A program made the position numbers and the translations under genes. From assembly GCA_041652575.1 (NCBI GenBank), contig JBAZHC010000003.1, forward strand, positions 143,052 through 207,051: a stretch of 64,000 nucleotides of DNA, read 5' to 3'. Below, piece by piece: positions 7,515 to 25,436 of this stretch (position 1 is its first letter; each line of letters opens with the position of its first letter). The notes under the pieces are model-generated. The model did not search any database, had not been told where the DNA came from, and worked only from the letters and a program-made list of their open reading frames with translations. This DNA is from Phycisphaerae bacterium (GTDB lineage Bacteria; Planctomycetota; Phycisphaerae; Sedimentisphaerales; UBA12454).

Positions 7515-7841
7515 ATGAAAAAAGTAATAAAAGTCATAATTTTTATGTTTTTGATTTGTGGTTTTCTTTTCGGAAATACCTCATCCGTACCACAATATTC
7601 TAACCATTCAAATCCATCTTATATATATACGCCGCAATCTGATGGGACTCTACCTGTAATACTGACATCAAAGAATCGACACGATAACCATTTCGACAGA
7701 TACCGCCTCGCCGACATTTCGACCGTTAATTTTATCGGCAAAGTATCTCTTAAATTGCTGTGGTATTCTGATAATGATAGCGGCTGCAATAATCAGTGCC
7801 GGAAAAGTCTCTTTTACCAAGACTGTCTGCTTCAAATTTAA
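7515..7841 (+). CDS. Hypothetical small secreted protein
   Basis: The ORF has a signal-like N-terminus (MKKVIKVIIFMFLICGFLFG). I saw no clear RBS and no recognisable domain. The context is AT-rich. Confidence 0.35.
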   Translation: MKKVIKVIIFMFLICGFLFGNTSSVPQYSNHSNPSYIYTPQSDGTLPVILTSKNRHDNHFDRYRLADISTVNFIGKVSLKLLWYSDNDSGCNNQCRKSLFYQDCLLQI

Positions 7842-7961
7842 TCACTCCATTTTTTCTAAAACACAGTTATATGCTAAAATCGTCCCTTAGGGCAATACTC
7901 TGCTCCGGGCGGCGAATTATTAAAATGCGTCTGACTAAAATAGAAATATGGAGTGAAATAT

Positions 7962-8411
7962 ATGAAAAACTCATTTGAATATATCGAAAAATTAATTAAT
8001 GAAAATAATGTCGAAAAAGCACTCGATATACTTAACCACAATCCCGACAGGTCTATATGGTTTCAAAATGCCCGTGCGGTTTGTCTGATGCGATTGAATT
8101 CTCCCGGAAATGCCGTAAAAACTCTTACGTCCATCGTATATCCCAACAGTTTCGTGATGATAAATCCCGATGCGCCGGACAAAATCAAACTAAACATGGC
8201 CGAAGCAATGCTGCTGACAGGGAATGTGGCTGGAGCCGTTAAATTAATAGAAAACAGTCCACAGGATTGTCCATTGCGAAATAAACTCGAAACAGCCATT
8301 AAAAAATGGAAGCTGTCATTGCCTTTCTGGTCTCGTTTAGCGATTACATTATTTGGGACATTACCCTACGATAGACCTATTGCTGTTGAACGTCCCTATG
8401 GAGTCATTTAA
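7962..8411 (+). CDS. Hypothetical protein, helical/TPR-like
   Basis: GGAG sits 8 nt upstream of the ATG at 7962; the ORF track starts at a GTG at 7953. The composition is helical-repeat-like (EKALDILNHNP...ARAVCLMRLN). No family was recognised. Confidence 0.5.
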   Translation: MKNSFEYIEKLINENNVEKALDILNHNPDRSIWFQNARAVCLMRLNSPGNAVKTLTSIVYPNSFVMINPDAPDKIKLNMAEAMLLTGNVAGAVKLIENSPQDCPLRNKLETAIKKWKLSLPFWSRLAITLFGTLPYDRPIAVERPYGVI

Positions 8412-8601: not shown

Positions 8602-8642
8602 AACAATATTGTAATTTATTGCTTTTTGACTACAATTTCGTA
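8602..8642 (+). promoter_or_regulatory. Pair of palindromic sites (AACAATATTGTA, TACAATTTCGTA) just upstream of the activator gene; candidate autoregulatory operator
   Basis: The sites are at 8602-8613 and 8631-8642, with 29 bp between their starts. They match the (T/A)ACA-N4-(T/C)GTA motif seen upstream of the four sigma-54 promoters. Confidence 0.45.
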
Positions 8643-8679
8643 TGCTATATTTGTATGTTATAGTCAAAGAGAAAAAAAT

Positions 8680-10209
8680 ATGGCAGTCAAACTATCAAAG
8701 GAAGTACAGTTGTTAGGCGATATGGCCAGGGCCTTTGCCGAGTCCCTCGACCTTGAGTTTACACTCAAGGCCATCCTGAAATCTCTCGATACACACGTCA
8801 AACTGCAAAGAGGAACGATTACCCTGCTTGACCCCGGAACGGAAACGATAAATATAAAAGTGGCGCACGGCCTGAGTGAAGAATCTAAACAATTAGGCAG
8901 TTATAAAATCGGTGAAGGCGTTACGGGTACTGTTGTTCAAACCGGCAAAGAAATTGTCGTGCCGGACATTTCAAAAGACAACAGATTTCTTCACAAAACT
9001 CATTCCAGAAGTCAGGCACATGGCAAACAAATCGCCTTTTACTGTGTGCCGATAAAACTCGAAGGCAGAACAATCGGAACTCTCAGTGTCGACAGACAGG
9101 TTCAAAAAGACGATGACGTGGAAGCAAATCTGAATCTCCTGAATGTCATAGCGACAATGGTCGCACAAGCGGTAAAACTCAATAAACTTGTCGAATCCGA
9201 CCGAAGACAGCTTTCAGAAGAAAACCTGCGGCTGAGACAGGAATTAAAAACACACTTCAATATAGACAATATGGTCGGCACAAGCAACGCGATGAAACAA
9301 ATTTACCGCCTTATCGAACAGGTCGCCGACAGCAACGCTACCGTCCTGATTCGCGGAGAAAGCGGAACCGGCAAAGACCTCGTCGCTCACGCAATCCATT
9401 ATAACAGTAACAGGGCAAGTAAGCCTTTCGTAAAGGTAAACTGCACCGCCCTGCCGGAAACACTGCTCGAAAGCGAACTGTTCGGCCATGAAAAAGGCTC
9501 TTTTACAGGGGCAACCGAAAGAAAGGCCGGCAGATTCGAAAGAGCAAACGGCGGTACAATATTCCTCGATGAAATAGGCGATTTTTCCATAAATCTGCAG
9601 GTTAAATTGCTCAGGGTTATTCAATTCAGAGAGTTTGAACGAGTCGGCGGAACCGAAACTATAAAGGCAAATGTACGCATTATCGTTGCTACAAATAAAA
9701 ATCTCGAAGAACAAATTAAGGAAAAACTCTTCAGAGAGGACCTCTATTACAGGATAAACGTTTTTCCAATTTATCTGCCGCCGCTTAGAGAACGAAAAGA
9801 CGATATCATGCTCCTGGCCGATTATTTCCTTGAACAATTCACGAAAGAAAATAACAAAAGAATCACACGCATCTCAACGCCGGCAATCGAAATGCTTACA
9901 AGTTATCACTGGCCGGGGAATATAAGGGAACTTGAAAACTGCATGGAAAGAGCTGTCCTTTTGTGCAATGAAGATGTCATACGTTCCGAACATCTGCCGC
10001 CATCGCTGCAAATGATTAAGAAAAGCGAAACCGCCTCGGGCCGTTCACTTATAGAGATCATAGAAAACAAAGAAAAAGAACTTATCATCGACTCTCTCAA
10101 AAAATACAACGGACAGCAAAGAAGAGCGGCAAAAGAACTGGGACTGACGGAACGAATCCTCGGATACAAAATCAAAAAATACGGGATATTCCCTAAATTG
10201 CTCTCTTAA
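8680..10209 (+). CDS. Sigma-54-dependent transcriptional activator with NifA-like architecture (GAF, AAA+, Fis-type HTH; no receiver domain)
   Basis: A GAF region ([28 protein letters not shown]) is followed by Walker A GESGTGKD, the GAFTGA-type loop [15 protein letters not shown], and a C-terminal HTH ([24 protein letters not shown]). I moved the start to the ATG at 8680, because the 52 aa upstream extension is low-complexity and crosses repeat copy B. Confidence 0.9.
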
Positions 10210-10212
10210 AAA

Positions 10213-10254
10213 TACAAAATTGTAGTGCAAAAATTCTACTTCTACATTATTGTA
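10213..10254 (+). promoter_or_regulatory. Candidate enhancer (UAS): two perfect TACA-N4-TGTA palindromes 30 bp apart
   Basis: TACAAAATTGTA is at 10213-10224 and TACATTATTGTA at 10243-10254. They lie 134 and 104 bp upstream of the -24 element at 10347. Confidence 0.55.
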
Positions 10255-10346
10255 TTCCAGCACAGCTAAGCCAACTAAAGTTTCTCCACATCGCAACACA
10301 TTGCAAAACAAGCACTTAAGATTAAATTGAAAATTATTGCATTCTT

Positions 10347-10362
10347 TGGCACGAAGATTGCT
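10347..10362 (+). promoter_or_regulatory. Sigma-54 (-24/-12) promoter
   Basis: TGGCAC-GAAGA-TTGCT matches the TGGCAC-N5-TTGC(A/T) consensus. It lies 63 nt upstream of the porin ATG. Confidence 0.8.
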
Positions 10363-10424
10363 TTATGTAAAACGTTAATTGTTTGTTTTTTTATTAACCG
10401 CATTTTTTTAATGGAGACAGAGAA

Positions 10425-11186
10425 ATGAAAAAGTTAGTACTATTGCTGGCATTGTTAGTAGCCTCTTCAGCTGTGTTGGCGGAAGGTGAAGACAAGATTG
10501 GATTTACTATTGGCAGTGACTTCTTCAGCAAGTATGTATGGCGTGGACAATTGCTTAATGACGACTTTGTTTTTCAACCGAGCATCGGCGCCAGTTACAA
10601 GGGATTTACAGCAAGTATCTGGGGCAATGTTGACACAACAAACTATCATGGCGATAGCGGTGAATTTACCGAGTATGATCTGACATTCGATTACAGCGGT
10701 AAATTCAGTGAAGACAGCAAAGTCGGCTATTCGGTAGGTTTAATACATTATCACTTCCCGAGTTTGTCCTATTCGGATACAACGGAACTTTACTGGGGAT
10801 TCAATTTTGACGTACCATTAAGTCCGACTATCAAAGTGTATCATGGCCTCGGCAACGAAAATGGAATATACGCAAACTTCGGTCTGTCGCATACATTTGA
10901 AAAGGTCCTGAAATTTAGCGATACCATTACAGGCGACCTGGCACTTGGAGCTTCTATCGGCTGGGGAAACGGTACATACAATAAAGACTATTGGGGCGTC
11001 GATGAGTCCCGGCTGAACGATTTGGCATTTACAGTCGGCATCCCTATCGATCTGGGCAATGGATGGGCCGTAAAGCCGAGCTTTAACTATGTAGTACTTG
11101 TCGATGGAAAAATTCGTGATACTGACGCATACGGCAAATCCAGTGACTATTTCTTTACGGGTATAAGCATCTCGAAATCTTTTTAA
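10425..11186 (+). CDS. Outer-membrane beta-barrel protein, TorF/Gcw_chp-like putative porin
   Basis: Signal peptide MKKLVLLLALLVASSAVLA, the family-like motif SKYVWRGQLLNDDFVFQPSIGASYKGFTASIWGNVD, alternating beta-strand pattern and a C-terminal F. Confidence 0.6.
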   Translation: MKKLVLLLALLVASSAVLAEGEDKIGFTIGSDFFSKYVWRGQLLNDDFVFQPSIGASYKGFTASIWGNVDTTNYHGDSGEFTEYDLTFDYSGKFSEDSKVGYSVGLIHYHFPSLSYSDTTELYWGFNFDVPLSPTIKVYHGLGNENGIYANFGLSHTFEKVLKFSDTITGDLALGASIGWGNGTYNKDYWGVDESRLNDLAFTVGIPIDLGNGWAVKPSFNYVVLVDGKIRDTDAYGKSSDYFFTGISISKSF

Positions 11187-11226
11187 AAGTTAAGAATCTG
11201 ATTTGTTAAATTTTAAGGAAATTAAA

Positions 11227-12579
11227 ATGAAAAAGGTAAAAATACCTTTGGTGGTGGTTGTTTGTGCCCTGATAGCGGCAATGCCGGCAATATGTATGGC
11301 CGATGAACAAGCGGCACTAACGCTTGAATCCGTCAAAGCGGAACTGCAAAACAACATTAATATCGTCTGGACCTGCGTCGCGGCGTTTCTCGTATTCTTT
11401 ATGCAGGCTGGTTTCGCCCTGGTTGAAACAGGTTTTACGCGGGCTAAAAATTCAGTTAACATCCTGATGAAAAACCTGATGGACTTTGTGATTGGCAGTC
11501 TCGCGTTTTTTCTGCTCGGATTCGGGCTGATGTTTGGCGTCTCAAACGGCTTATTCGGCACCTCTATGTTTGCAATGAACGGGACAGCACCGGGAGACAG
11601 TTGGAATTGGACGTTCCTCATTTTCCAAACTGTATTTGCCGCAACTGCCGCGACAATTGTTTCTGGCGCCATGGCGGAAAGAACAAAATTTATCAGCTAT
11701 TTAGTTTACAGTGCGGTTATTAGCATTGTTATTTATCCCATATTCGGTTCCTGGGCATGGGGCAATCTGCTGCTGACCGACAATCACAGCTGGCTGGCTA
11801 ACATGGGGTTTCATGATTTTGCCGGTTCTACTGTCGTGCATTCAATAGGCGGATGGCTTGCGTTATCTGGTGCTGTTATGCTTGGGCCGCGTCTTGGAAA
11901 ATACGGCCCGGACGGCAAACCGCGTGCTATTCTCGGTCACAGTATGCCGCTGGCAACACTGGGCGTATTTATTCTGTGGTTCGGCTGGTTCGGATTCAAC
12001 CCCGGCAGTACAACCGCGGGTAACGGTCTTGGCGGTTATATCGCGGTTACTACAAATTTAGCTGCTGCAGCGGGAGCTTTAACTGCATTAATCGCATCAT
12101 GGAAAATCATTAAAAAACCGGATATTGGAATGACACTGAACGGTGCGCTTGCCGGCCTGGTAGCAATAACCTGTCCATGTGACGGAGTTTCGCCAATGAG
12201 TGCAATTGCTATTGGCGGTGTCGCAGGAGTTTTGGTAGTTCTCAGCGTATTATTCTTTGATTATGTGCTCAAAATAGATGACCCGGTCGGTGCAGTCAGC
12301 GTTCACGCTGTAAACGGACTATGGGGAACCTTGTCATACGGCCTGTTTGCGATAAACGGCGGTCTGTTTAATGGCGGCGGTTTCAAACTTCTGGGCGTAC
12401 AGTTTATCGGAGCCGCAACTGCCTTCGTATGGGCATTCGGACTCGGTATAATACTATTCTGGATACTTCGCAACTCGGTTGGGCTTCGTACCAGTGCCGA
12501 AGAAGAACTTAAAGGTCTCGATATCGGCGAACACGGCAATGAAGCTTATGCCGGTTTCCAAGTATTCACTACAGAATAA
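11227..12579 (+). CDS. amt: Ammonium transporter (Amt family), copy 1, with signal peptide
   Basis: FFMQAGFALVETGFTRAKN, DFAGSTVVHSIGGW and WFGWFGFNPGS are Amt signatures. The start is set at the ATG at 11227, after AAGGA. Confidence 0.93.
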   Translation: MKKVKIPLVVVVCALIAAMPAICMADEQAALTLESVKAELQNNINIVWTCVAAFLVFFMQAGFALVETGFTRAKNSVNILMKNLMDFVIGSLAFFLLGFGLMFGVSNGLFGTSMFAMNGTAPGDSWNWTFLIFQTVFAATAATIVSGAMAERTKFISYLVYSAVISIVIYPIFGSWAWGNLLLTDNHSWLANMGFHDFAGSTVVHSIGGWLALSGAVMLGPRLGKYGPDGKPRAILGHSMPLATLGVFILWFGWFGFNPGSTTAGNGLGGYIAVTTNLAAAAGALTALIASWKIIKKPDIGMTLNGALAGLVAITCPCDGVSPMSAIAIGGVAGVLVVLSVLFFDYVLKIDDPVGAVSVHAVNGLWGTLSYGLFAINGGLFNGGGFKLLGVQFIGAATAFVWAFGLGIILFWILRNSVGLRTSAEEELKGLDIGEHGNEAYAGFQVFTTE

Positions 12580-12591
12580 GGAGATATAAAT

Positions 12592-12933
12592 ATGAAATTG
12601 ATAATTGCATATATTCAACCACACAAACTCAGTGATGTAAAACAAGCTCTGTACAAAGCAGAGGTTCACAAAATGAGCGTAACGAACTCACTGGGCTGCG
12701 GGCAGCAAAAAGGTTACCACGAATCGTACCGTGGGGTTGGCATCGAGGTCAATCTTTTAAAGAAGGTGCGGCTCGAAGTCGCCGTCAATGAAGGCTTCGT
12801 CGAAAAAACCGTAAAAGCCATTATAGATGGTGCAAGAACAGGACAAATAGGTGACGGTAAAATATTTATTATTGACCTGCCGGAATGTATAAGAATCCGG
12901 ACAGGTGAACGAGGAGGTGAAGCAATCGGATAA
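12592..12933 (+). CDS. glnK: P-II nitrogen regulatory protein, copy 1
   Basis: 112 aa. The T-loop is [20 protein letters not shown] and the B-loop/C-terminus is [30 protein letters not shown]. It lies immediately downstream of amt. Confidence 0.93.
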
Positions 12934-12963
12934 TATTGACCTTAACCAGTCGTCCATAGAGAA

Positions 12964-12986
12964 GGCACCACTTCCAAAATTGTGCC
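12964..12986 (+). other. Conserved 3'-UTR hairpin after glnK copy 1, with a CACTTCC loop
   Basis: GGCAC-cacttccaaaatt-GTGCC is part of a roughly 50 nt block that starts at the stop codon. The block is conserved after glnK copy 2 (14966-15016). Confidence 0.5.
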
Positions 12987-12995
12987 CTGAACTTT

Positions 12996-13022
12996 AAGGG
13001 GTCCGTAATAGCCGGGCCCCTT
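12996..13022 (+). terminator. Terminator-like GC hairpin after glnK copy 1
   Basis: AAGGGGTCC-gtaatagcc-GGGCCCCTT forms a 9 bp stem with one G-U pair. There is no clean T-tract. Confidence 0.45.
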
Positions 13023-13043
13023 GGTTCATAAATCCAAAAAATC

Positions 13044-13085
13044 TACATTTTCGTATTTCGCCAACAGTTATATTACATTATTGTA
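13044..13085 (+). promoter_or_regulatory. Candidate enhancer: TACATTTTCGTA and TACATTATTGTA, 30 bp apart
   Basis: The sites are at 13044-13055 and 13074-13085, which is 132 and 102 bp upstream of the -24 element at 13176. Confidence 0.55.
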
Positions 13086-13175
13086 ATTATCGCCAAACAC
13101 AACAAGCCGAATAAATTTTCCATAACTTATTTATAAATAAACAGTTAAAAGAATTTATACACAAAAAATAACGAT

Positions 13176-13191
13176 TGGCACAATTATTGCA
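13176..13191 (+). promoter_or_regulatory. Sigma-54 (-24/-12) promoter
   Basis: TGGCAC-AATTA-TTGCA is a perfect consensus. The 16-mer is identical to the one at 15193. Confidence 0.85.
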
Positions 13192-13294
13192 ATTAATAAT
13201 TCAATAGCTATTCATTAACATGGACGACTGCAAAAATTTGAAAAAGTTTTTGCAGAATTATTAATTTTATTAACTCAATTTTAGGACACAAAAA

Positions 13295-14596
13295 ATGACT
13301 ATGGACACAAAAGTAATGGTAGACACGATGTGGGTTCTGATAACCGCGTTTCTCGTTTTCTTTATGAACCTTGGCTTTGCCGCGGTGGAATCTGGATTTG
13401 CGAGAGCAAAAAACTGCGTAAATATCATGTCTAAAAATTTTGTTGTATTCGCAGTCTCCTCGCTGGGGTTCTTATTTATAGGATGGGGAATAATGTTCGG
13501 CGACGGTAACGGCTTTTTAGGATTACATGGTCTGTTCTTCGTCGGCGGTGCGGATAATTCGCCTGCAATAGGAGAGGCTTATAAGGGAGTATATTCCGCT
13601 ATATCCTGGACAGGTGTGCCGTTATGGGCAAAATTTTTCTTCCAATTGGTTTTCTGCGGCACTGCGGCAACCATCGTTTCGGGAGCGGTAGCTGAACGCA
13701 TCAAATATATAGCATTCATTTTCTTCTCTTTTGTTATGACAATGCTGATTTATCCGGTCATCGGTCACTGGGTATGGGGCGGCGGATGGCTTGCAAAAAT
13801 GGGAATGTTCGATTTTGCAGGTTCAACGGTCGTGCATAGTGTCGGCGGATGGGCGGCTTTGGCGGGCGTGATAGTGCTCGGACCGCGAATTGGAAAATAC
13901 GACAATGGTCATATTAAAGCCATACCCGGCCACAATCTTTCGTTGGCAACTATTGGAACATTCGTTTTGTGGTTCGGCTGGTTCGGATTTAATCCCGGCT
14001 CTACAATGGCCGCCGACCCCGGAGCAATCGCACACATTGCTGTAACTACCAATACGGCAGCTGCGGCAGCCATTATGAGCGCAACTATACTTTCGTGGCT
14101 ATTGATGGGCAAACCTGATTTGGGAATGACCCTTAATGGATGCCTTGCAGGGTTAGTCGCAATTACAGCTCCATGTGCATTTGTCAGCGTCGGAAGTTCC
14201 CTGGTAATAGGCCTTGTAGCAGGCGTACTGGTCGTGTTGGCTGTAATGATGTTTGACAAATTTCGGCTGGACGATCCGGTAGGCGCTTTATCAGTCCACC
14301 TTGTCAACGGCGTATTCGGAACTCTGTGCGTTGGTCTGTTCGCTCAAGACAAACTCACCGGAACCGCAACAGGCAACGGCCTGTTCTACGGCGGCGGTCT
14401 TAAACTGCTCGGAGTTCAATTTACTGCTGTGGTTTCAGTCGGCCTGTTCGTATTCATAGTTGCATTGGTAACATGGTCGATTCTGAAAGCTGTTATGGGC
14501 ATTCGCGTTTCGCGTGAAGAAGAACTGCGGGGCCTTGATATCGGCGAACATGGAAATGAAGCTTACGCAGGATTCCAGGTATTTACTACAGAATAA
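13295..14596 (+). CDS. amt: Ammonium transporter (Amt family), copy 2, no signal peptide
   Basis: It has the same signatures as copy 1. The C-terminal 25 aa are nearly identical to copy 1 (EELRGLDIGEHGNEAYAGFQVFTTE). Confidence 0.93.
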   Translation: MTMDTKVMVDTMWVLITAFLVFFMNLGFAAVESGFARAKNCVNIMSKNFVVFAVSSLGFLFIGWGIMFGDGNGFLGLHGLFFVGGADNSPAIGEAYKGVYSAISWTGVPLWAKFFFQLVFCGTAATIVSGAVAERIKYIAFIFFSFVMTMLIYPVIGHWVWGGGWLAKMGMFDFAGSTVVHSVGGWAALAGVIVLGPRIGKYDNGHIKAIPGHNLSLATIGTFVLWFGWFGFNPGSTMAADPGAIAHIAVTTNTAAAAAIMSATILSWLLMGKPDLGMTLNGCLAGLVAITAPCAFVSVGSSLVIGLVAGVLVVLAVMMFDKFRLDDPVGALSVHLVNGVFGTLCVGLFAQDKLTGTATGNGLFYGGGLKLLGVQFTAVVSVGLFVFIVALVTWSILKAVMGIRVSREEELRGLDIGEHGNEAYAGFQVFTTE

Positions 14597-14623
14597 TAAC
14601 TTAACTATAAATGGAGATATAAT

Positions 14624-14965
14624 ATGAAACTTATAATCGCATATATTCAGCCTCACAAGCTTAATGACGTAAAACAATCTCTGTTCAAAGCTGAAGTTTA
14701 TAAAGTATCCGTAACAAACTCATTAGGCTGCGGACAGCAAAAAGGCTACCACGAGTCGTATCGCGGCGTACCGATTGAAGTGAATCTTCTAAAGAAAGTG
14801 CGTCTTGAAATAGCGGTAAATGAAAACTTTGTCGATAGAACTGTAAAGGCAATCATCGACGGCGCAAGAACCGGACAAATCGGAGACGGCAAAATCTTTG
14901 TTATTGACCTGCCGGAATGTATAAGAATCCGCACCGGCGAGCGAGGCGGCGAAGCTATCGGTTAA
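14624..14965 (+). CDS. glnK: P-II nitrogen regulatory protein, copy 2
   Basis: It differs from copy 1 at 11 of 112 positions by hand count. The T-loop is [20 protein letters not shown]. Confidence 0.93.
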
Positions 14966-14995
14966 AAACTGACTTAAACAGTCGTCCGTATAAAA

Positions 14996-15016
14996 GGCAC
15001 CACTTCCTAAAGTGCC
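14996..15016 (+). other. Conserved 3'-UTR hairpin after glnK copy 2, with a CACTTCC loop
   Basis: GGCAC-cacttcctaaa-GTGCC. The stretch 14997-15008 (GCACCACTTCCT) is the exact reverse complement of 15269-15280 (AGGAAGTGGTGC), which covers the amt copy 3 RBS. Confidence 0.5.
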
Positions 15017-15025
15017 AAGAGATTA

Positions 15026-15047
15026 GGGACTCGACTCTCCGAGTCCC
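15026..15047 (+). terminator. Terminator-like hairpin after glnK copy 2
   Basis: GGGACTCG-actctc-CGAGTCCC is a perfect 8 bp stem, followed by tgattctct. Confidence 0.5.
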
Positions 15048-15072
15048 TGATTCTCTAACAATGTAGAGAAAC

Positions 15073-15114
15073 TACATAAATGTATTTTTTCTGCGTTTAA
15101 ATCACAAATATGTA
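15073..15114 (+). promoter_or_regulatory. Candidate enhancer: TACATAAATGTA and CACAAATATGTA, 30 bp apart
   Basis: The sites are at 15073-15084 and 15103-15114, which is 120 and 90 bp upstream of the -24 element at 15193. Confidence 0.5.
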
Positions 15115-15192
15115 TAAAACACAAACTCGCTAAATCTGCGACAAATCATTTAACTTTCTTCATAAGCGGCACTTAAGCGGAAATACATAAAC

Positions 15193-15208
15193 TGGCACAA
15201 TTATTGCA
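15193..15208 (+). promoter_or_regulatory. Sigma-54 (-24/-12) promoter
   Basis: TGGCAC-AATTA-TTGCA is a perfect consensus, 75 nt upstream of the ATG at 15283. Confidence 0.85.
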
Positions 15209-15282
15209 TATAACTAAAGAGTAAAATCTGGATTAATTGACTAACTAAAACATTTGCATAATTTGGAAAGGAAGTGGTGCTA

Positions 15283-16605
15283 ATGAAGGTTAGTGTATGC
15301 AAACTGATTTGCTGCGCGATTTTTTTGTCACTTACCGCAGATCTGTGTCTTGCCCAGGAAACGACAACTGTTCTCAAAGTTGACAGCGGAGATACCGCAT
15401 GGGTTCTTATGTCTGCGGCTCTCGTAATGCTGATGACACCGGGCCTGGCGTTCTTCTATGGCGGGCTTGTTAGGCGTAAAAATCACCTCAGTGTTTTAAT
15501 GCAGTGTTTCATTGCACTGGCGGCTCTTAGCATTCAATGGGTTGTGTTCGGTTACAGTCTGTCTTTTGCACCCGGCAACGGCTTTATGGGAGGCCTGCAA
15601 TGGTTCGGACTCAAAGGTGTCAGACTCGAACCTTATGCCGCTTACAGCTCGACAATTCCACACCAGGCATTTATGATTTTCCAGGCAATGTTCGCGGTCA
15701 TTACACCTGCACTTATTATTGGCGCATTTGCAGAGCGAATGAAATTCTCGGCATATCTTATTTTCATATTGTTATGGGCAACGTTTGTATATGACCCAAT
15801 CACGCACTGGGTCTGGGGCCAGGGCGGATGGCTTAGGGATATGGGCGTTCTGGATTTCGCAGGCGGAACAGTAGTTCACATAAACGCAGGCATCGCGGCT
15901 TTAGTTACCGCGTTAATGATAGGTAAAAGGTCCTGTTACGATAAATACGCCATCGCACCGCATAATCTGCCGTTCAGCGTTTTAGGAGCCGCCCTGCTTT
16001 GGTTCGGCTGGTTCGGTTTCAATGCCGGCAGCGCACTGGCTGCAAACGGTATAGCCGTAAACGCATTTGTCGTTACCAATACCGCAGGAGCCGCTGCTGC
16101 ACTGACATGGGCGTTTATCGACTGGAAACTAAACGGCAATCCGACTATGCTCGGTACGATATCAGGAGCAATCGCGGGTCTGGCGGCAATCACACCGGCG
16201 GCAGGATTTGTCGGAATAGGAGCGGCCCTGGTAATTGGTGTCGTCGCAAGCATTCTTTGCTTCATCGCCGTAAGTTTCGTAAAACGAAAATTAGGTTATG
16301 ACGATTCGCTCGACGCCTTCGGTGTGCACGGCATAAGCGGCTTCTGGGGAACATTAGCTGCGGGATTGTTCGCTTCAAAAGCCATAAACCCGGCCGGTGC
16401 CGATGGCTTGATGGCTGGAAATCCAAAACAATTTATGACTCAGCTTATCGCGGTAGCCGTGACTTTGGCTTATGCTTTTATTGGAACATACATTATTTAT
16501 AAATTAATTGATGTAGTCATCGGCGTACGGGCCACTGAGGAAAATGAAGCGATAGGACTCGACCTGACCGAGCACAACGAACGTGCTTATACTATGCTCG
16601 AATAA
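15283..16605 (+). CDS. amtB: Ammonium transporter, AmtB type, copy 3, with signal peptide
   Basis: DSGDTAWVLMSAALVMLMTPGLAFFYGG, DFAGGTVVHINAG and WFGWFGFNAGS. The start is set at the ATG at 15283, after GGAAAGGAAG; the ORF track uses the GTG at 15274. Confidence 0.92.
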   Translation: MKVSVCKLICCAIFLSLTADLCLAQETTTVLKVDSGDTAWVLMSAALVMLMTPGLAFFYGGLVRRKNHLSVLMQCFIALAALSIQWVVFGYSLSFAPGNGFMGGLQWFGLKGVRLEPYAAYSSTIPHQAFMIFQAMFAVITPALIIGAFAERMKFSAYLIFILLWATFVYDPITHWVWGQGGWLRDMGVLDFAGGTVVHINAGIAALVTALMIGKRSCYDKYAIAPHNLPFSVLGAALLWFGWFGFNAGSALAANGIAVNAFVVTNTAGAAAALTWAFIDWKLNGNPTMLGTISGAIAGLAAITPAAGFVGIGAALVIGVVASILCFIAVSFVKRKLGYDDSLDAFGVHGISGFWGTLAAGLFASKAINPAGADGLMAGNPKQFMTQLIAVAVTLAYAFIGTYIIYKLIDVVIGVRATEENEAIGLDLTEHNERAYTMLE

Positions 16606-16623
16606 AAGAAAGGGAAACCAAAT

Positions 16624-16965
16624 ATGAAACTGGTAATAGCGATAATTCAGCCTCACAGGCTCGAACAGGTAAAAGAAGAACTCTATAAAGAAGAAGTCAA
16701 TCTCATTACCGTAAGCGAAGTTTTGGGCCACGGCAGACAAAAAGGCGTTACCGAAATTTATCGCGGTATGAAAGAAACCGGCAACCTGCTGCGGAAAATC
16801 CGTATCGAAATAGCGATAAACGAAAACTACGTTGAACGGACAATAAAAGCGATTACCACCGGTGCCAAAACAGGCCAGACCGGAGACGGGAAAATCTTCG
16901 TTGTCGACCTGCCTGAATGCGTCAGAATCCGGACAGGTGAACGCGGAGGCGAAGCTATAGGCTAA
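16624..16965 (+). CDS. glnK: P-II nitrogen regulatory protein, copy 3 (divergent)
   Basis: The T-loop is GHGRQKGVTEIYRGMKETGN and the C-terminus [31 protein letters not shown]. Confidence 0.92.
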   Translation: MKLVIAIIQPHRLEQVKEELYKEEVNLITVSEVLGHGRQKGVTEIYRGMKETGNLLRKIRIEIAINENYVERTIKAITTGAKTGQTGDGKIFVVDLPECVRIRTGERGGEAIG

Positions 16966-16976
16966 AATAACGAGGC

Positions 16977-16998
16977 AAATCAACATATTTGTTGATTT
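16977..16998 (+). terminator. Weak AT-rich hairpin after glnK copy 3
   Basis: AAATCAAC-atattt-GTTGATTT forms an 8 bp stem. Confidence 0.35.
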
Positions 16999-17012
16999 AT
17001 CCGGCAGTTTGA

Positions 17013-17071
17013 AACAATTATGTAATAATTACAATTTCGTAGATTCACAGAAGAAAATCTACAATTATGTA
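17013..17071 (+). promoter_or_regulatory. Candidate enhancer: three palindromic sites upstream of the GS-III promoter
   Basis: AACAATTATGTA is at 17013-17024, TACAATTTCGTA at 17030-17041 and TACAATTATGTA at 17060-17071. The last two are 30 bp apart and lie 131 and 101 bp upstream of the -24 element at 17161. Confidence 0.55.
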
Positions 17072-17160
17072 CTTAATGATAATTTTATATTGAAATAAAA
17101 TATTTTTGTAATATCTTTAACAGCAAGGCGCTACAATAAAATATTGCCGTAAAATCTGGT

Positions 17161-17176
17161 TGGTATGATAATTGCA
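17161..17176 (+). promoter_or_regulatory. Sigma-54 (-24/-12) promoter
   Basis: TGGTAT-GATAA-TTGCA keeps the GG-N10-GC spacing. It lies 54 nt upstream of the GS-III ATG. Confidence 0.7.
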
Positions 17177-17229
17177 TATATGTAGATTACTTGGGATTAT
17201 AATATCTTTTAAAATACAGGAGTATAAAA

Positions 17230-19338
17230 ATGAGTGAAAATTTAGAACCGGTAACTGCGTTGTTCGGTAAAAATGTTTTTAACGATGGCGTAATGAGAGA
17301 ACGGCTGCCGAAAAATGTCTACAAAGAATTCAAAAAGACAATAGCCGAAGCCAGATTTCTCGATATGTCTCTGGCCAACGTGGTAGCAAATGCAATGAAA
17401 GACTGGGCAATTGAAAAAGGCGCAACACATTTCTGTCACTGGTTCCAGCCGATGACCGGCCTGACCGCCGAGAAACACGATTCGTTTATCTCGCCAACCG
17501 CCGAAGGCACTACCATTATGGAATTCAGCGGCAAGGAACTCATCCAGGGTGAACCTGACGCATCGAGTTTTCCGTCCGGCGGCCTAAGAGCAACTTTCGA
17601 GGCAAGAGGCTATACGGCATGGGATTGCACAAGCCCTGTGTTCATCAAGGAGACGGGCAAAACCGTCACTCTTTATATCCCCTGCGCATTCTGCTCATAC
17701 CACGCCGAGGCGCTTGACAAGAAGACTCCCCTGCTGCGGTCCATGGACGCTCTTAATAAACAGGCCGTTAGAGTACTAAAAGCTTTGGGAAATACCACAA
17801 CCAAAACTGTAGGCGCGACATTAGGACCGGAACAGGAATATTTCCTGATTGACAAGAAATTCTTCGAAAAAAGACTCGATATTCTGCTCACCGGACGCAC
17901 GCTGTTCGGAGCGGCTTCTCCTCGCGGACAGGAAATGAGCGACCATTACTTCGGCGCCCTGCACGAAAGAGTCGCCTCGTTTATGCACGATGTTAATATC
18001 GAACTTTGGAAACTTGGCGTATCGGCAAAAACGCAGCATAATGAAGTAGCACCGGCTCAATATGAACTGGCCCCGGTTTTCAGTACCGTCAATGTCGCTA
18101 CCGACCATAATCAGCTTGTAATGGAAACCCTGCAAAAGGTCGCATTAAGACACAATCTGGTTTGCCTGCTGCATGAAAAACCGTTCAAAGGCGTCAATGG
18201 CTCAGGAAAGCATAACAACTGGAGTATGGTAACCGACGACGGCGTTAATCTGCTCGACCCGGGCAGTACGCCACACGACAATATGGTGTTCCTCGTGATG
18301 CTTTGTGCCGTTATCAAGGCCGTAGATAAATATTCCAAACTGCTTCGTGCAACTGTCGCGACGCCTGGAAACGAGCACCGGCTCGGCGCTCACGAAGCAC
18401 CGCCGGCCATTGTGTCGATATTCCTCGGTGACCAGTTAACTGATATAATAGAACAACTGGCCGTGGGCGGAGCCAAATCCTCTAAATCCGGCGGACAATT
18501 GAAACTCGGCGTCTCTTCTCTGCCGCAGCTGCCGAAAGACAGTACCGACAGAAACAGGACTTCACCGTTCGCGTTTACAGGAAATAAATTCGAGTTCCGT
18601 ATGGTAGGTTCCAGCCAGTCAACTGCCGGCCCGATGTTTGTCCTGAATACCATTGTCGCTGATATATTAAAAGAAATCGCAGACGAGATGGAAAAGAGTT
18701 CTAATGTAAAAGTTTCTGTACAAAAGTTCCTGAGCAAAATCGCGAAAGAACACAGCAGAATTATATACAACGGCGACAACTATACTGAAGCATGGGTCAA
18801 GGAAGCCGAAAAGAGAGGCCTGCCGAATATTAAATCGACCGTAGATTCCATAAAAACCATTATGGATGACGAAAATGTAAAACTGTTCGTAAACCATAAG
18901 GTTCTCAGCAAAGCCGAACTCAAGGCAAGAACGGAAATCCTGCTTGACGCTTACGGTATGACCATTAATTTTGAAGCGAAAACAACTTTGAATATTGCAG
19001 AAAGGCAGATTCTGCCGGTCGCAATCGAATATTCCGGCAAACTTGCCAGGGCCGCCGAGCGTATCAGTAACGCGGGAAGCGACCCGGCCACTCAAAAGAA
19101 AATACTCGATAAGACCTGCGAACTGATAAGCGAACTGAATAACAGCATTGAAGCCCTGAAAAAAGCAGTTGCCGATGCAAATGATATTGACAACACGGCG
19201 AAAAAAGCGGAAGATTTCAGGGATGCCGTTATCCCTGCAATGAGCAGGGTAAGGAAAGCCGTCGATGGCCTGGAAATGATTGTAGATGCCAAAATGTGGC
19301 CTCTGCCGACTTACGCTGAAATGCTGTTTGTAAGATAA
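17230..19338 (+). CDS. glnN: Glutamine synthetase, type III
   Basis: 702 aa. The N-terminus is typical of GS-III ([27 protein letters not shown]) and the catalytic region contains [13 protein letters not shown] and [10 protein letters not shown]. Confidence 0.93.
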
Positions 19339-19370
19339 AGCTTATAAGTGCACAATTTGTTGTTAAATAA

Positions 19371-19401
19371 ATGGCCGATTTTTTTGGGGGAAATCGGCCA
19401 T
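19371..19401 (+). terminator. Strong hairpin between glnN and gltB (terminator or attenuator)
   Basis: ATGGCCGATTT-ttttggggg-AAATCGGCCAT is a perfect 11 bp stem. The downstream T-tract is poor. Confidence 0.55.
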
Positions 19402-19430
19402 TCTATGATATGATTTTATAAAGAAATAAA

Positions 19431-22400
19431 ATGACGATACTACAGAAAGATTGCGGATTATACGAAGTTAAAACCGAGCATGATGCCTGCGGTATAGGCG
19501 CCGTTGTAAATATTTCGGGCAAAGCCGACCATTCCATTATAAACTACGGCAAAGAAATCCTGATAAACCTTCACCACCGCGGAGCGGCAGGCGCCGATGA
19601 AACAACAGGCGACGGTGCAGGTATTTTATTCCAGATTCCGCACGAGTTTTTTTTTGCACAGGCTGAAAAACTCGGCATAAATCTGCCGCAGGCCGGCAAA
19701 TACGCCGTAGGAATGATTTTCTCCCCTAAAGATGACCAGCTTCGCAAGAAATGTTTTTCAATTCTCGCCCAGGCAATCGAACTGCACGGAATGAAAATTC
19801 TCGGACAGCGTATCGTACCGGTCAAGCCTGACTGTCTCGGTAAAATAGCGCTTCAGGCAGAGCCGCATGTCAGTCAGATTTTTGTAGAGACCGGCGGTTT
19901 TCAGGACGCAGAACTCGAAAGAAAACTGTTTCTGGCCCGTAAGAAAACCGAAAAACAGGTAAGAGAAAATTTCGGTGATGCGGGCAGCGATTTTTATATC
20001 TGCTCGCTGAGCGGCAGAACAATCTGCTACAAAGGTATGTTTATGGCCTGGCAGTTGTTCGCTTACTATCCCGATTTGGCGGATGAAAATCTCAAAAGCG
20101 CTCTGGCTATAGTTCATCAAAGATACAGCACGAACACATTTCCGAACTGGCGGCTCGCTCAGCCTTTCCGCTGCATCGCCCATAACGGCGAAATCAATAC
20201 TCTCAGCGGAAACAAAAATTGTATGCAGACAAGAGAATATAAAATGTCCTGCGAAAAATTCGGCGAGTATATGCCGGATGTGCTGCCGGTACTTACACCG
20301 CAGGGAAGCGACTCGGCATGTTTCGACAACGCACTTGAGCTGCTTGTGCAGGCGGGGCGCACCCTGCCGCACGCTATGATGATGATGATTCCTGAAGCCT
20401 TTGGCGCAAAATATCATATAAGCACGGACAAACGTGCATTCTACGAATATCACTCCTCGATTATGGAGCCATGGGACGGCCCTGCCGCGATGGTCTTCAC
20501 CGATGGTCAAATCATCGGCGGAACGCTTGACAGAAACGGTCTGCGGCCCTGCCGATATATCGTAACAACGGACGGCCTTGCCATTCTGGCCAGTGAAGCC
20601 GGTGTAGTGGAATTTCCACCCGAAAAAATCCAGAAGAAAGGCCGGCTTCAGCCCGGTCACATGTTCCTCGTCGATACTGTCGAAGGCCGGATAGTTACCG
20701 ACAACGAAATCAAAAGCAAAATTTCCCGGCAGACACCGTATCGGCGATGGCTCGAAGAAAACCGCATCGAACTGCGGGGACTTTTCGACAGTCCCAAACT
20801 CGTAACGAGCGATTCGGAAACCATTTTCCGGCGGTTGCGTATGTTCGGTTTTACCCGTGAGGAATTAAGAATGATTCTTACGCCTATGGCGGTCAACGGG
20901 CAGGAGCCGGTCGGCTCGATGGGCAACGATGCGGCGCTGGCCGTGCTGAGCAATAAACCAAAATTGCTGTTTAATTATTTCAAACAGCTCTTTGCGCAGG
21001 TTACTAACCCGCCGATTGACCCGCTGCGTGAAGGTCTGGTAATGAGCCTGATGGGCTTTACCGGCAGAAGACAGAATATTCTCGAAGAGACGCCGCAGCA
21101 CTGCAGACAGCTTAAACTTCCTCATCCGGTTCTGACAAACGAAGATGTCGAGCGTCTGCGTTCGGTAAAGATGAAAGATTTCAAGGTCGCCACAATATCG
21201 GCGCTTTTCGACGCACAAACAAATGACCCTGCAGGTTCCCTGCGATACGGAATCGACAGACTTGTAAGCGATGCCCAGGCAGCCATAAAAAATGGCGCCT
21301 GCCTGCTGATAATCAGCGACAGGAATTCGTCTCAAAATCTTGTACCGATTCCATCGCTGCTGGCGACCGCTGCCGTACACAATGGCCTGCTTAAAGTGGG
21401 ACTAAGAGCCGAGGCGGGTATTATCGTCGAAAGCGGCGAACCGAGAGAAGTAATGCACTTCTGTCTGCTGTGCGGATACGGGGCAAATGCGGTAAATCCT
21501 TACCTTGCCTTCGAATGTCTCTACGAATTACAAAGACAAGGCGAGCTATCGGCCAATATGGAGCCTGTTCAAATCGCTGATAATTACATCGCCGCGATTA
21601 AAAAAGGCATTCTCAAAACAATGAGCAAGATGGGAATTTCGACGCTGAGAAGTTATCATACCGCCCAGCTTTTCGAGGCGATAGGACTCAATAAAGCGTT
21701 TGTAGGCGAATTCTTCACAAATACCAGCTCACGCATTGAGGGCATAGGCCTTGAGGAAATAGCAAAAGAAACACTTCTTCGGCACGGATATGCGTTTGAG
21801 CCGAGAAAAAGCGGCCAGCTCGAACTGGATTTCGGCGGCGAATATTATTTCAGAAACTTCGGCGAAGCACATCTGTGGAATCCGACGACAGTCTCCCGTC
21901 TTCAGCATGCCGTAAAAAATAACGACCAAAAAGCTTATGACGAATACGCAAACGCGGTCAATCAGCAGGGAGAAAAACTTTGTACCCTGCGCGGCCTTTT
22001 TGAATTCAAACAGCCCCAGCCGATTCCTATCGAAGAGGTTGAGCCGGCAGAGGAAATAGTAAAAAGATTCTGCACCGGTGCTATGAGCCACGGCTCGATA
22101 AGCAAAGAAGCTCACGAGTGCATGGCGATGGCAATGAACAAAATCGGCGGTATGAGCAATACCGGCGAAGGCGGCGAAGACGAAGAAAGATATATCGAAA
22201 AGCAAGGCGAGGTTTCAAAAAACTGCGCTATAAAACAGGTCGCCAGCGGACGGTTCGGCGTAACGATAAATTATCTCTCTCACGCCAAAGAATTGCAGAT
22301 TAAAATGGCCCAGGGTGCAAAACCCGGCGAAGGCGGACAACTGCCGGGCCATAAGGTAACAGAAGAAATAGCAAAACTGCGATATTCGACTGCAGGCGTT

Positions 22401-23987: not shown

Positions 23988-25401
23988 GATAAAAGGATTT
24001 GTAAAATATAAACGTAAAAAAACAGGTTACCGGCCGATTGAGCAGAGAATCCTCGATTATAAAGAGGTCGAACTTGCTCTTACGCCTGAAGATATTATGC
24101 AGCAGGCGGCAAGATGTATAGACTGCGGAATACCGTTCTGTCACGGTCTCGGCTGTCCGCTCGGAAATAATATACCCGAATTCAACGATATGATTTACAA
24201 AGGTCAGTGGCAAAAGGCCTGCGAACTTCTCCATTCGACAAATAATTTTCCGGAAATCACAGGCCGAATCTGCCCCGCACCCTGTGAAACAGCCTGTACG
24301 CTTGCGATAAACGATGAGCCTGTGTTCATAAGACACATCGAATACCAGATTGTCGAACGCGGCTTCAAAGAAGGCTGGATAAAACCGATTATCGCCAGAC
24401 AAAAAACGGGCAAAAGAATTGCGATTATCGGTTCTGGCCCTGCCGGACTTGCCGCGGCGCAGGAACTCGCAAGAGCCGGACACAATGTTGTCGTATTCGA
24501 AAAAGACGATAAAATAGGCGGCCTTTTACGATATGGCATTCCTGATTTCAAACTCGAAAAAAATATCATCGACCGCAGAATCGCTCAGCTTGCCGCTGAA
24601 GGCGTCCAGTTTCAGACCGGCGTCGAAGTCGGCAAAGACATTTCGGCTCACTACCTCAAAAAAATGTTCAATTGCATCTGCATTACGATGGGAGCAGGCG
24701 AACCGAGGGACCTTGCCGTTACAGGCAGAGGATATGAGAACGTAGTATTTGCCTGGGATTATCTTGTCGGACAGAATAAAATCTGCGCAGACGGACAAAT
24801 CGAAGGGAAAATAATCTCCGCCCGGGACAAAACTGTCGTCGTAATAGGCGGCGGCGATACCGGAAGCGATTGCGTCGGAACCGCCCGCAGACAAGGCGCC
24901 AAAAAGATTTATCAGCTTGAAATTCTGCCCAAGCCCCCGAACGTCCGACCGGAAGATACGCCCTGGCCGAACTGGCCGAGAATTATGAGAACTTCTTCCT
25001 CGCACGAAGAAGGCTGCGAAAGACTTTGGAGCGTTAAAACGACAAAAATTTCAGGTACGGATACGAGTGTCAGCGAACTGAACGGCTGCCAGGTCGAATG
25101 GATAAAAACGTCCAGAGGCTGGAACATAAAAGAGATTCAGGGCACAGAGTTCAATATAAAGACTGACCTTGTAATCCTCGCTATGGGATTTTTGCATGTA
25201 AGGCACAATGGCTTTGTCGAAAGCCTCGGACTCAAACTTGACGAAAACGGCAATATCGCCGTCAGTGATTTCCAGACAAGCGACCCTGCCGTTTTTGCCG
25301 CAGGCGACTCTGTACTCGGTGCCTCTCTGGTCGTAAAGGCCATCGACACCGGCAGAAAAGCCGCAGACAAAATTAATAAATGGCTTATGGACAACAGATA
25401 A
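23980..25401 (+). CDS. gltD: Glutamate synthase small subunit (NAD(P)H-dependent)
   Basis: MAEIKGFVKYKRKK..., the Fe-S cysteines (RCIDCGIPFCH, CPAPCETAC) and the dinucleotide motif IAIIGSGPAGLAAA. The ATG overlaps the gltB stop (ATGGCTGA). The upstream extension in the ORF track is rejected. Confidence 0.95.
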   Translation: MAEIKGFVKYKRKKTGYRPIEQRILDYKEVELALTPEDIMQQAARCIDCGIPFCHGLGCPLGNNIPEFNDMIYKGQWQKACELLHSTNNFPEITGRICPAPCETACTLAINDEPVFIRHIEYQIVERGFKEGWIKPIIARQKTGKRIAIIGSGPAGLAAAQELARAGHNVVVFEKDDKIGGLLRYGIPDFKLEKNIIDRRIAQLAAEGVQFQTGVEVGKDISAHYLKKMFNCICITMGAGEPRDLAVTGRGYENVVFAWDYLVGQNKICADGQIEGKIISARDKTVVVIGGGDTGSDCVGTARRQGAKKIYQLEILPKPPNVRPEDTPWPNWPRIMRTSSSHEEGCERLWSVKTTKISGTDTSVSELNGCQVEWIKTSRGWNIKEIQGTEFNIKTDLVILAMGFLHVRHNGFVESLGLKLDENGNIAVSDFQTSDPAVFAAGDSVLGASLVVKAIDTGRKAADKINKWLMDNR

Positions 25402-25436
25402 ATATTCTGTAAAATAGTCGAAAAACGGGAAATAAA

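Follow-up and report, generated by a model that had tools for sequence, protein, structure and literature searches.

Nitrogen control in the Planctomycetota and their class Phycisphaerae is essentially uncharted, and a 2025 survey of sigma-54 regulons contains little on nitrogen assimilation in this phylum. In a stretch of 64,000 nucleotides from the metagenome-assembled genome of a Phycisphaerae bacterium of the Sedimentisphaerales (GenBank assembly GCA_041652575.1, contig JBAZHC010000003.1, positions 143,052 to 207,051; this whole stretch is referred to below as the window, and all coordinates are counted from its first nucleotide), genes for an outer-membrane barrel protein, ammonium transporters (amt), GlnK proteins and type III glutamine synthetase (GS-III) lie downstream of sigma-54 promoters that are each preceded by a pair of short palindromes. 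Which protein reads these palindromes, and what do they control? Judging from their arrangement and conservation, they appear to be the upstream activating sequences (UAS) of a sigma-54 nitrogen-assimilation regulon, and their most likely reader is the product of the adjacent gene, a 509-aa activator that combines a GAF domain, an AAA+ domain and a helix-turn-helix (HTH) domain; the probability of this reading is put at about 0.8. Together with 80 related loci, the window offers a testable model: the activator and its putative 12-14-bp operator, a constant geometry from enhancer to promoter, a core regulon and an operator for autoregulation.

Paired palindromes upstream of sigma-54 promoters

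Pattern search and reading of the 64 kb located the palindrome WACA-N4-YGTA (W, A or T; Y, C or T) at 8602, 8631, 10213, 10243, 13044, 13074, 15073, 17013, 17030 and 17060. These ten loci fall within 8602-17071, and the 6 hits elsewhere in the window are all singletons at chance level. The total of 21 strand-hits compares with 5.2 +/- 2.4 expected, and none of 100 dinucleotide-preserving shuffles reached it; the pattern is real and far above chance. The initial annotation had described five pairs of such sites, all of which are present at the coordinates it gave. The A or T that it specified for the first position does not hold for the site at 15103, which reads CACAAATATGTA and begins with CACA, and its list lacked the additional site at 17013. 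The spacing of 30 bp from start to start is exact in all four pairs that are linked to promoters.

The four -24/-12 promoters reported at 10347, 13176, 15193 and 17161 are likewise found there, the 16-mers at 13176 and 15193 are indeed identical (both TGGCACAATTATTGCA), and the distances from the proximal site to the TGG of the -24 element amount, as claimed, to 104, 102, 90 and 101 bp. Of these, only the promoters at 10347, 13176 and 15193 have the exact sequence TGGCAC-N5-TTGC, which the window contains nowhere else, and the promoter at 17161 (TGGTATGATAATTGCA) is a TGGTAT variant. With GG and GC 10 bp apart in TGGCAC-N5-TTGCW upstream of a gene as the definition of a sigma-54 promoter, these three exact copies and one variant are the only matches in the 64 kb, and they are conserved upstream of orthologous genes. 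The elements concerned are the following, the palindromic sites being listed without strand:

10213-10224, no strand: distal site of enhancer 1, TACAAAATTGTA
10243-10254, no strand: proximal site of enhancer 1, TACATTATTGTA, 104 bp upstream of TGG
10347-10362, plus strand: sigma-54 promoter 1, of the barrel-amt-glnK unit, TGGCACGAAGATTGCT
13044-13055, no strand: distal site of enhancer 2, TACATTTTCGTA
13074-13085, no strand: proximal site of enhancer 2, TACATTATTGTA, 102 bp upstream of TGG
13176-13191, plus strand: sigma-54 promoter 2, TGGCACAATTATTGCA
15073-15084, no strand: distal site of enhancer 3, TACATAAATGTA
15103-15114, no strand: proximal site of enhancer 3, CACAAATATGTA, 90 bp upstream of TGG, of the class that is one turn shorter and to which 23 other modules belong
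15193-15208, plus strand: sigma-54 promoter 3, TGGCACAATTATTGCA, identical to promoter 2
17013-17024, no strand: third, extra site of the glnN region, AACAATTATGTA, 17 bp upstream of the distal site and conserved in the related loci L002 and L040
17030-17041, no strand: distal site of enhancer 4, TACAATTTCGTA
17060-17071, no strand: proximal site of enhancer 4, TACAATTATGTA, 101 bp upstream of TGG
17161-17176, plus strand: sigma-54 promoter 4, TGGTATGATAATTGCA; the orthologous sequence in L002 and L040 is TGGTACAGTTATTGCA

A scan of the whole window for near-consensus pairs returned the five known pairs and one overlap with a terminator-like hairpin, the hairpin at 16975-17000 giving rise to a spurious "site" at 16982.

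The source genome itself was scanned within the 64-kb window only, and 1.2 Mb of related loci and a metagenome scan with a composite pattern were used instead of further sequence from it. The related sample comprised 80 loci with 10-kb flanks, one genome per species, chosen by activator relatives of 92-50% identity. In this sample, the core ACA-N4-TGT occurs in 461 copies, against about 350 estimated from base composition. The 85-140 bp in front of TGGYAY-N5-TTGC account for about 120 of these copies, which cluster sharply at 102/132 and 91/121 bp, and the excess is confined to 30-bp pairs before -24/-12 promoters and to a 29-bp pair upstream of the activator gene. Near-consensus pairs spaced by 28-32 bp number 147; a strong -24/-12 element follows 100 of them at the fixed distance, and most of the others are the pair directly upstream of the activator gene. 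Complete modules (80 in total) were found in 52 of the 80 species-level loci, at least one in each, so that the palindrome is conserved at a fixed distance upstream of orthologous porin, amt and glutamine synthetase (GS) genes.

The sites have the logo c-T-A-C-A-w-w-w-w-T-G-T-A-g, that is, the wider consensus cTACA-wwww-TGTAg. Could such sequences be chance products of AT-rich intergenic DNA, or remnants of repeats? The intergenic regions are AT-rich and the N4 spacer consists of A and T only, which would fit this explanation, but in addition to the shuffling result several observations leave it with a practically negligible probability. In 145 kb of other DNA with 36% GC or less, the core has a density of 0.36/kb, close to the composition estimate of about 0.34/kb, compared with 13.9/kb in the pair zones. 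Position and core are conserved, while the flanks and the 18-bp spacer between the sites are not, and the design is kept down to 50% identity of the activator protein and across DNA of 32-70% GC. As the palindrome is neither dense in unrelated AT-rich DNA nor lacking upstream of the orthologous genes, the finding stands.

The geometry of the module is tightly constrained. Over 84 modules, the pair spacing is 30 bp in 61, 29 bp in 15 and 31 bp in 8, and the distance from the proximal site to TGG is bimodal, with values of 89-94 bp (n=23) and 99-105 bp (n=57), none at 95-98 bp and a few at 108 and 114 bp. The distances therefore change in steps of about 11 bp (about 91, about 102 and rarely about 113 bp), so that the enhancer stays on the same side of the helix as seen from the promoter; steps of about one turn would be expected if the activator, once bound, has to face the promoter.

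Between enhancer and promoter, a further dyad, TAA(G/C)-N17-(G/C)TTA (TAAS-N17-STTA), is present in 36 of the 84 modules, compared with 53 of 1463 AT-rich control windows (3.6%). Measured from the start of the proximal site, it begins at a distance of 49-51 bp; 33 of 37 occurrences have a spacer of exactly 17 bp, and in both the 91- and the 102-bp class its position tracks the enhancer and not the -24 element. In the window, the middle elements are, again without strand:

10294-10318, no strand: middle element 1, degenerate CAAC-N17-CTTA, read from the sequence
13123-13147, no strand: middle element 2, perfect TAAC-N17-GTTA, 49 bp after the start of the proximal site
15151-15175, no strand: middle element 3, perfect TAAC-N17-CTTA, 48 bp after the start of the proximal site
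17109-17133, no strand: middle element 4, degenerate TAAT-N17-GCTA, overlapping TGTAATATCTTTAACA (17107-17122), invariant in L002 and L040

An IHF site of the E. coli type was considered for this element but is not established: the strict core CAA-N4-TTR, though at a fixed offset, is found in only 16 of the 84 modules. TAAS-N17-STTA is judged the better description. The dyad points to another architectural or regulatory protein acting at the module, and its binder may be a homodimeric bender of the IHF/HU type or a second regulator. Two more TAAS-N17-STTA copies, at 37025-37049 and 37192-37216, flank the start of an outer-membrane efflux gene at about 37.1 kb.

The adjacent activator as probable reader of the sites

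The gene that precedes the first module encodes the following protein:

8680-10209, plus strand: one-component sigma-54 activator of 509 aa, with GAF, AAA+ and Fis-type HTH domains

As the initial annotation had it, the protein lacks a receiver domain, its Pfam domains being GAF (residues 24-165), Sigma54_activat (PF00158, 4.7e-74) and HTH_8 (8e-9), and its gene is the only one of its kind in the window, since tblastn finds no second sigma-54 activator. The AAA+ motifs that define enhancer-binding proteins are intact (Walker A GESGTGK, FLDEIGD and the GSFTGA loop); the GSFTGA variant of the GAFTGA loop is listed as functional (PMC4641369).

Several lines of evidence link this activator to the palindromes: its synteny with barrel-amt-glnK is conserved in two orientations, the same motif is found on its own promoter, it is encoded by the sole activator gene of the window, its ATPase and sigma-54-contact motifs are intact, and the sites form phased pairs where the UAS elements of activators sit, about 80-150 bp upstream of the target promoters. 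The synteny extends to 56 of the 80 loci, often together with further amt-glnK units, GS-III and gltB; the activator gene precedes barrel-amt-glnK and is divergent from it in the group of 50-55% identity. In the metagenome scan, at least 120 contigs were recovered by the DNA pattern alone and, although the contigs are short, 23 among the matches listed carry a full-length ortholog of the GAF-type activator. The motif also hints at co-variation with the HTH: activators with the helix ...RI(L/I)GYK(I/V)K... go with invariant ACA/TGT sites, and those with ...ER(L/I)MG(L/I)R... (L042, L043 and L045) with cCTAC-N6-GTAGg, in which the inner bases vary and the outer C/G are strong. The proposal that a motif unlike the NtrC site forms phased pairs serving as the enhancer of the adjacent activator was thus supported by every test that was run, and from these results we infer binding by the activator itself.

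Several points weigh against this assignment. It relies on position, synteny and analogy, and the apparent co-variation of motif and HTH comes from three genomes with only about 10 sites. In ACA-N4-TGT, only about 7-8 bp separate the centres of the half-sites, a closer spacing than Fis-type HTH dimers typically have, and recognition may depend in part on the outer C/G positions. A few close orthologs (L008, L012) are preceded by the pair even though no nitrogen genes are found up to 10 kb away. For the promoter discussed below, a sigma-70 consensus for Phycisphaerae is not established, so its -35 and -10 elements are candidates, and the Fisher p-values for these hexamers are inflated by the shared ancestry of the orthologs.

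The tight half-site spacing would also suit a different explanation, namely that the palindromes are bound by another, unlinked factor, such as a global nitrogen repressor or co-activator, and that the adjacent activator binds elsewhere or acts from solution. The TAAS-N17-STTA dyad in the same regions agrees with it in so far as more than one protein probably docks there. This explanation is nevertheless considered unlikely. Paired sites at about -120/-150 in helical phase with -24/-12 are the hallmark of an activator UAS, and the column profile reveals no other conserved dyad in the UAS zone; moreover, the motif lies on the promoter of the activator gene itself in most close orthologs, the site variant follows the HTH variant, and the activator orthologs on the listed metagenome contigs were retrieved without reference to the protein. 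Recognition by the adjacent activator therefore remains the preferred reading.

The pair upstream of the activator gene differs from the others and involves these elements:

8602-8613, no strand: distal site, AACAATATTGTA, the 3' half of which forms, with the next base, a -35-like TTGTAA
8631-8642, no strand: proximal site, TACAATTTCGTA, 29 bp from the distal site, the first six bases being a -10-like TACAAT
8609-8636, plus strand: candidate sigma-70-type promoter of the activator gene, TTGTAA-16-TACAAT, apparently embedded in both sites

This fifth pair, at 8602/8631, was present where it had been placed, but it is not an enhancer, considering its 29-bp spacing, the absence of a -24/-12 element downstream and the embedded -35/-10 hexamers. 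No GG-N10-GC lies between the pair and the ATG, and the best sigma-54 score there is 13/18. The candidate sigma-70 promoter was listed by the consensus scan with 9/12 matches to a consensus that may not be that of Phycisphaerae. Among 37 close orthologous loci (at least 71% identity), the pair is kept in 33, with the 29-bp spacing in nearly all; 33-60 bp separate it from the start codon in the orthologs, where TTGTA(A/G) makes up the 3' half of the distal site. TACAAT is present in 20/35 proximal sites of activator genes vs 13/84 enhancer proximal sites, and TTGT in 30/35 activator-gene pairs vs 37/84 enhancer sites. With sigma-70-like hexamers inside both sites, occupancy should repress the activator gene, which suggests that the pair may be an operator for negative autoregulation by promoter occlusion. 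NtrC is known to repress sigma-70 promoters overlapped by its sites, as at glnLp and glnAp1.

The family assignment of the activator raises the question of nitrogen fixation. The protein passes the NCBIfam nifA equivalog TIGR01817 marginally and in two stretches (536.7 bits vs a cutoff of 528.85), and falls below the cutoffs of TIGR01818 (ntrC; 349.8 vs 558.6 bits) and of the FhlA model (347.9 vs 830 bits). In PDB, its closest full-length match is A. vinelandii NifA (9qq6_C, E 3e-117, aligned end to end). Among all solved GAF domains, the best match to its GAF is that of Aquifex Nlh1 (4g3k_A, E 8e-29, residues 5-181), at 104 bits vs 69 bits to the NifA GAF; on this domain match it is classed as an Nlh1-type one-component activator, with an Nlh1-type GAF, a coiled-coil linker and AAA+. 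Some relatives already bear the database name "nif-specific transcriptional activator NifA", and the TIGR01817 pass probably leads to false nifA calls in genome bins of Planctomycetota.

The nifA cutoff and the best full-length match, along with nifH neighbours in some relatives, would be compatible with a genuine nif-specific NifA that acts on nif targets in another part of the genome, with the amt and GS promoters served by NtrC or another regulator. In L045, from a Spirochaetes genome bin, the gene of a 55% identical activator is followed by CCTACCTAAAAGTAAG and CCTACTTTTAGGTAGG, 30 bp apart, the proximal site being 104 bp from TGGCACGATCCTTGC; next comes an operon (L045:9977-21030) whose first gene is nifH by sequence and whose subsequent open reading frames (ORFs), read from size and order, fit nifI1-I2-D-K-E-N-B. 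In L194 (L194:1647-5300), glnB, a 43% identical activator, nifH and a similar site pair occur together. The nifH promoters of both loci are of the sigma-54 type and are preceded by a dyad pair spaced by 30 bp, with the form cCTAC-N6-GTAGg in L045. In the window, neither nifH nor other nif genes were found by Pfam and nifH tblastn, with 60970-62253 and 62279-63973 covered by nifH tblastn only. The statement that NifA architecture occurs without nif genes is therefore correct for the window and not for the protein clade as a whole, in which relatives of 43-55% identity front nifH; the clade appears also to serve nif promoters where nif genes exist. A nif-specific role is very improbable here: upstream of these promoters there is no NtrC-type site and no positioned TGT-N10-ACA, the 64 kb yield no second activator gene and no nif gene, amt-glnK synteny is widespread among the loci, and the similar pairs at the relatives' nifH promoters indicate that control of nif and of assimilation are not mutually exclusive. 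Control of assimilation by the GAF-type activator accordingly remains the favoured reading of the locus.

Regulon, genomic context and proposed mechanism

The genes behind the four modules are as follows:

10425-11186, plus strand: outer-membrane beta-barrel protein ("porin"), 253 aa, with a signal peptide, assigned from an AlphaFold2 model and Foldseek
11203-12579, plus strand: ammonium transporter 1 (Pfam, 6e-125)
12592-12933, plus strand: GlnK/P-II 1 (Pfam)
13295-14596, plus strand: ammonium transporter 2 (Pfam)
14624-14965, plus strand: GlnK/P-II 2 (Pfam)
15274-16605, plus strand: ammonium transporter 3 (Pfam)
16624-16965, plus strand: GlnK/P-II 3 (Pfam)
17230-19338, plus strand: glutamine synthetase type III, glnN (Pfam GSIII_N, Gln-synt_C and Gln-synt_C-ter)
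19431-31411, plus strand: gltB, gltD, glutamine-dependent NAD synthase (nadE), carB and carA (Pfam)

The barrel protein has no Pfam hit, some of its homologs are tagged PF09694/TIGR02001, one homolog is encoded by Anaerohalosphaera lusitana, and its AlphaFold2 model is a confident beta-barrel (predicted local distance difference test 88.7) that matches OmpG, PcoB, Tsx and FapF in Foldseek. The start codon of ammonium transporter 1 is uncertain, since the ORF begins at TTG and the Pfam domain at residue 55. Each glnK is followed by a GC-rich or perfect hairpin (12985-13020, 15015-15050 and 16975-17000) with no clear T-run, and these hairpins are probably terminators that separate the units. The second amt has a hairpin with a 12-bp stem (CTGCAAAAATTT GAAA AAGTTTTTGCAG, 13228-13255) in its predicted 5' leader, downstream of promoter 2 and ahead of the start codon; it matches no Rfam family, and an Rfam scan of 8-20 kb found no RNA family at E up to 0.1.

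The genes glnN, gltB, gltD, glutamine-dependent nadE, carB and carA (17230-31411) lie head to tail on the same strand with gaps of 11-93 bp, and could possibly form a 14-kb operon that makes and uses glutamine and is driven from promoter 4. This stretch contains no separate module, and there is no further site pair anywhere in the window. Linkage of gltB, gltD and carB is also seen in L014 and L030. Upstream of the activator gene, the ORFs 7515-7841 and 7953-8411, examined as candidates for a conserved NifL-like partner, have no Pfam or NCBIfam hit and are not conserved beside orthologs. Elsewhere in the window, a 1303-aa protein (147-4058) combines a very long array of ankyrin repeats with a subsequent beta-propeller-like region, which is unusual in bacteria, and an 806-aa fusion (32624-35044, minus strand) has the uncommon architecture of HATPase_c, pyridine-nucleotide disulphide oxidoreductase and C-terminal rhodanese.

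The control region of glnN has close counterparts elsewhere. The cassette 16966-17245 aligns with L002:18880-19200 and L040:16205-16525 from the third site through the -12 element, with 81% mean column identity in the three-way alignment, and the similarity ends directly after the promoter. In L002 and L040, which have a 90% identical activator, the cassette fronts a 470-aa GS-I (glnA); the sequences indicate that one GS isoform was exchanged for another while the control region in front of it was kept.

Directly behind the module, the genome loci carry the barrel gene in 36 of 84 cases, amt in 22, GS-III in 8 and the 470-aa GS-I in about 7. The composite metagenome pattern (site-N-site-N-promoter) matched at least 120 loci of 32-70% GC, and the downstream genes among the matches listed were amt (26), barrel (15), glnK/glnB (13), GS-III (10) and GS-I (6). 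About 10 contigs among these listed matches (L100, L107, L121, L141 and others) have the module directly upstream of glnD (Pfam GlnD_UR_UTase), and single cases concern an OmpL-like porin, an SBP_bac_5 binding protein, a tetrapyrrole methylase and a nirB-like reductase, as well as one phenol-hydroxylase hit that is probably unrelated. The occurrence of glnD and glnB/glnK as first genes implies that the module is used well beyond amt and GS genes. The initial view of a complete activator, operator and regulon kept in one block consequently describes the window and does not apply generally, as glnA, glnD and glnB carry the module in relatives and metagenomes.

A possible course of events can be outlined. 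Two HTH dimers would occupy the two sites 30 bp, or about three helical turns, apart, with site centres at about -150 and -120 from the start site as calculated from the TGG distances. Low nitrogen, probably signalled by 2-oxoglutarate and/or GlnK/P-II by analogy with NifA and Nlh1, would act on the GAF domain and release the AAA+ domains, and the bound dimers would nucleate an ATPase ring. Looping or bending of the AT-rich intervening DNA with its TAAS-N17-STTA element would bring the ring to E-sigma54 closed complexes at TGGCAC-N5-TTGC, and ATP hydrolysis would open the promoters of barrel-amt-glnK, the two further amt-glnK units and glnN, possibly with gltBD-nadE-carBA. A one-component sensor activator would thereby take the functional place of NtrBC.

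The module signature is recognisable in the DNA of very different organisms, from 32 to 70% GC. The "equivalog" TIGR01817 gives an assimilation regulator the name NifA and can therefore mislead the inference of diazotrophy from metagenomes. It is tentatively proposed, as a broader idea somewhat more likely to fail than to hold, that "NifA-like" one-component GAF activators are the general nitrogen regulator of many non-proteobacterial lineages and share one enhancer module. This clade may hold the Phycisphaerae proteins, the Aquifex Nlh1 type, possibly spirochaetal EbpA, and relatives in other candidate phyla. If so, it would drive ammonium uptake, GS and glutamate synthase (GOGAT), P-II/GlnD and, where present, nifH operons, through a shared module of two TAC-N6-GTA dyads 30 bp apart, TAAS-N17-STTA and then -24/-12; the proteobacterial nif-specific NifA (TGT-N10-ACA) under NtrBC would be a later specialisation, and TIGR01817 "nifA" calls in metagenome-assembled genomes would be no sign of diazotrophy.

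Comparison with known nitrogen regulators

At E. coli glnAp2, two strong NtrC dyads about three turns apart and about 100-140 bp upstream nucleate the ATPase oligomer. The present system resembles NtrC (NRI) at glnAp2 in its paired dyad sites and in the sigma-54 promoters of nitrogen-assimilation genes (GS, amt-glnK). It differs in that the activator has a GAF sensor instead of a receiver domain, there is no NtrB, and the site is TACA-N4-TGTA, not TGCACC-N5-GGTGCA. The distinction from the NtrC site made in the initial annotation holds, as none of these promoters has an NtrC-type site upstream. Allowing 3 mismatches, the window contains 7 NtrC-type matches vs 16.8 expected, 6 of them in called ORFs and 1 (35269) in unrelated downstream DNA.

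With proteobacterial NifA, the activator shares the GAF-AAA+-HTH architecture and the marginal TIGR01817 pass, and its relatives adjoin nifH. Unlike NifA, its targets are the barrel gene, amt-glnK and GS-III, with no nif gene found in the window; its recognition helix differs from TPRQIAYRIQ of NifA, it has no NifL-like neighbour, and the cysteine motif C-X11-C-X19-C-X4-C was not seen in its sequence. The NifA UAS TGT-N10-ACA was examined as a candidate site and rejected, with 9 copies in the window vs 10 expected and 10 copies without preferred position in 84 upstream regions; one copy, at 17107, sits inside the middle element of the glnN promoter.

Aquifex aeolicus Nlh1 (NifA-like homolog 1) resembles the present activator as a one-component GAF activator and has the closest solved GAF domain; we know of no report on its regulon or DNA site. 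In a passage of PMC9866876, which cites Batchelor et al. 2013, Nlh1 comes from a non-diazotroph and is "speculated" to control nitrogen assimilation, not fixation. The Geobacter regulator GnfM is described in parts of PMC2995071 as a master sigma-54 nitrogen activator with two sites footprinted from -131 to -91, and also as a repressor where its sites overlap the promoter; unlike the present activator, it belongs there to a GnfK-GnfM regulatory cascade. The present regulator is not described in the Desulfovibrio sigma-54 regulome (PMC4641369), and the literature search found no paper on the palindrome motif or on a Phycisphaerae nitrogen regulon; the site sequences of EbpA, Nlh1 and GnfM lie outside the comparison.

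Taken together, sigma-54 promoters with an activator UAS are nothing out of the ordinary as a type of system; here the type occurs in a little-studied phylum and with an apparently undescribed operator, and its distinctive points are the unusually clean geometry, the putative autoregulatory promoter embedded in the sites and the extra dyad. The nearest experimentally studied analogue is EbpA-RpoN of Leptospira. EbpA is likewise a GAF-type sigma-54 activator, although it is FhlA-like with two GAF domains, unlike the single GAF of the present protein. According to the summary of Hu et al. 2017 in a section of PMC12655853, EbpA experimentally activates amtB and two lipoprotein genes and is needed under nitrogen limitation, and in both systems genes for outer-membrane proteins or lipoproteins are co-regulated with amt.

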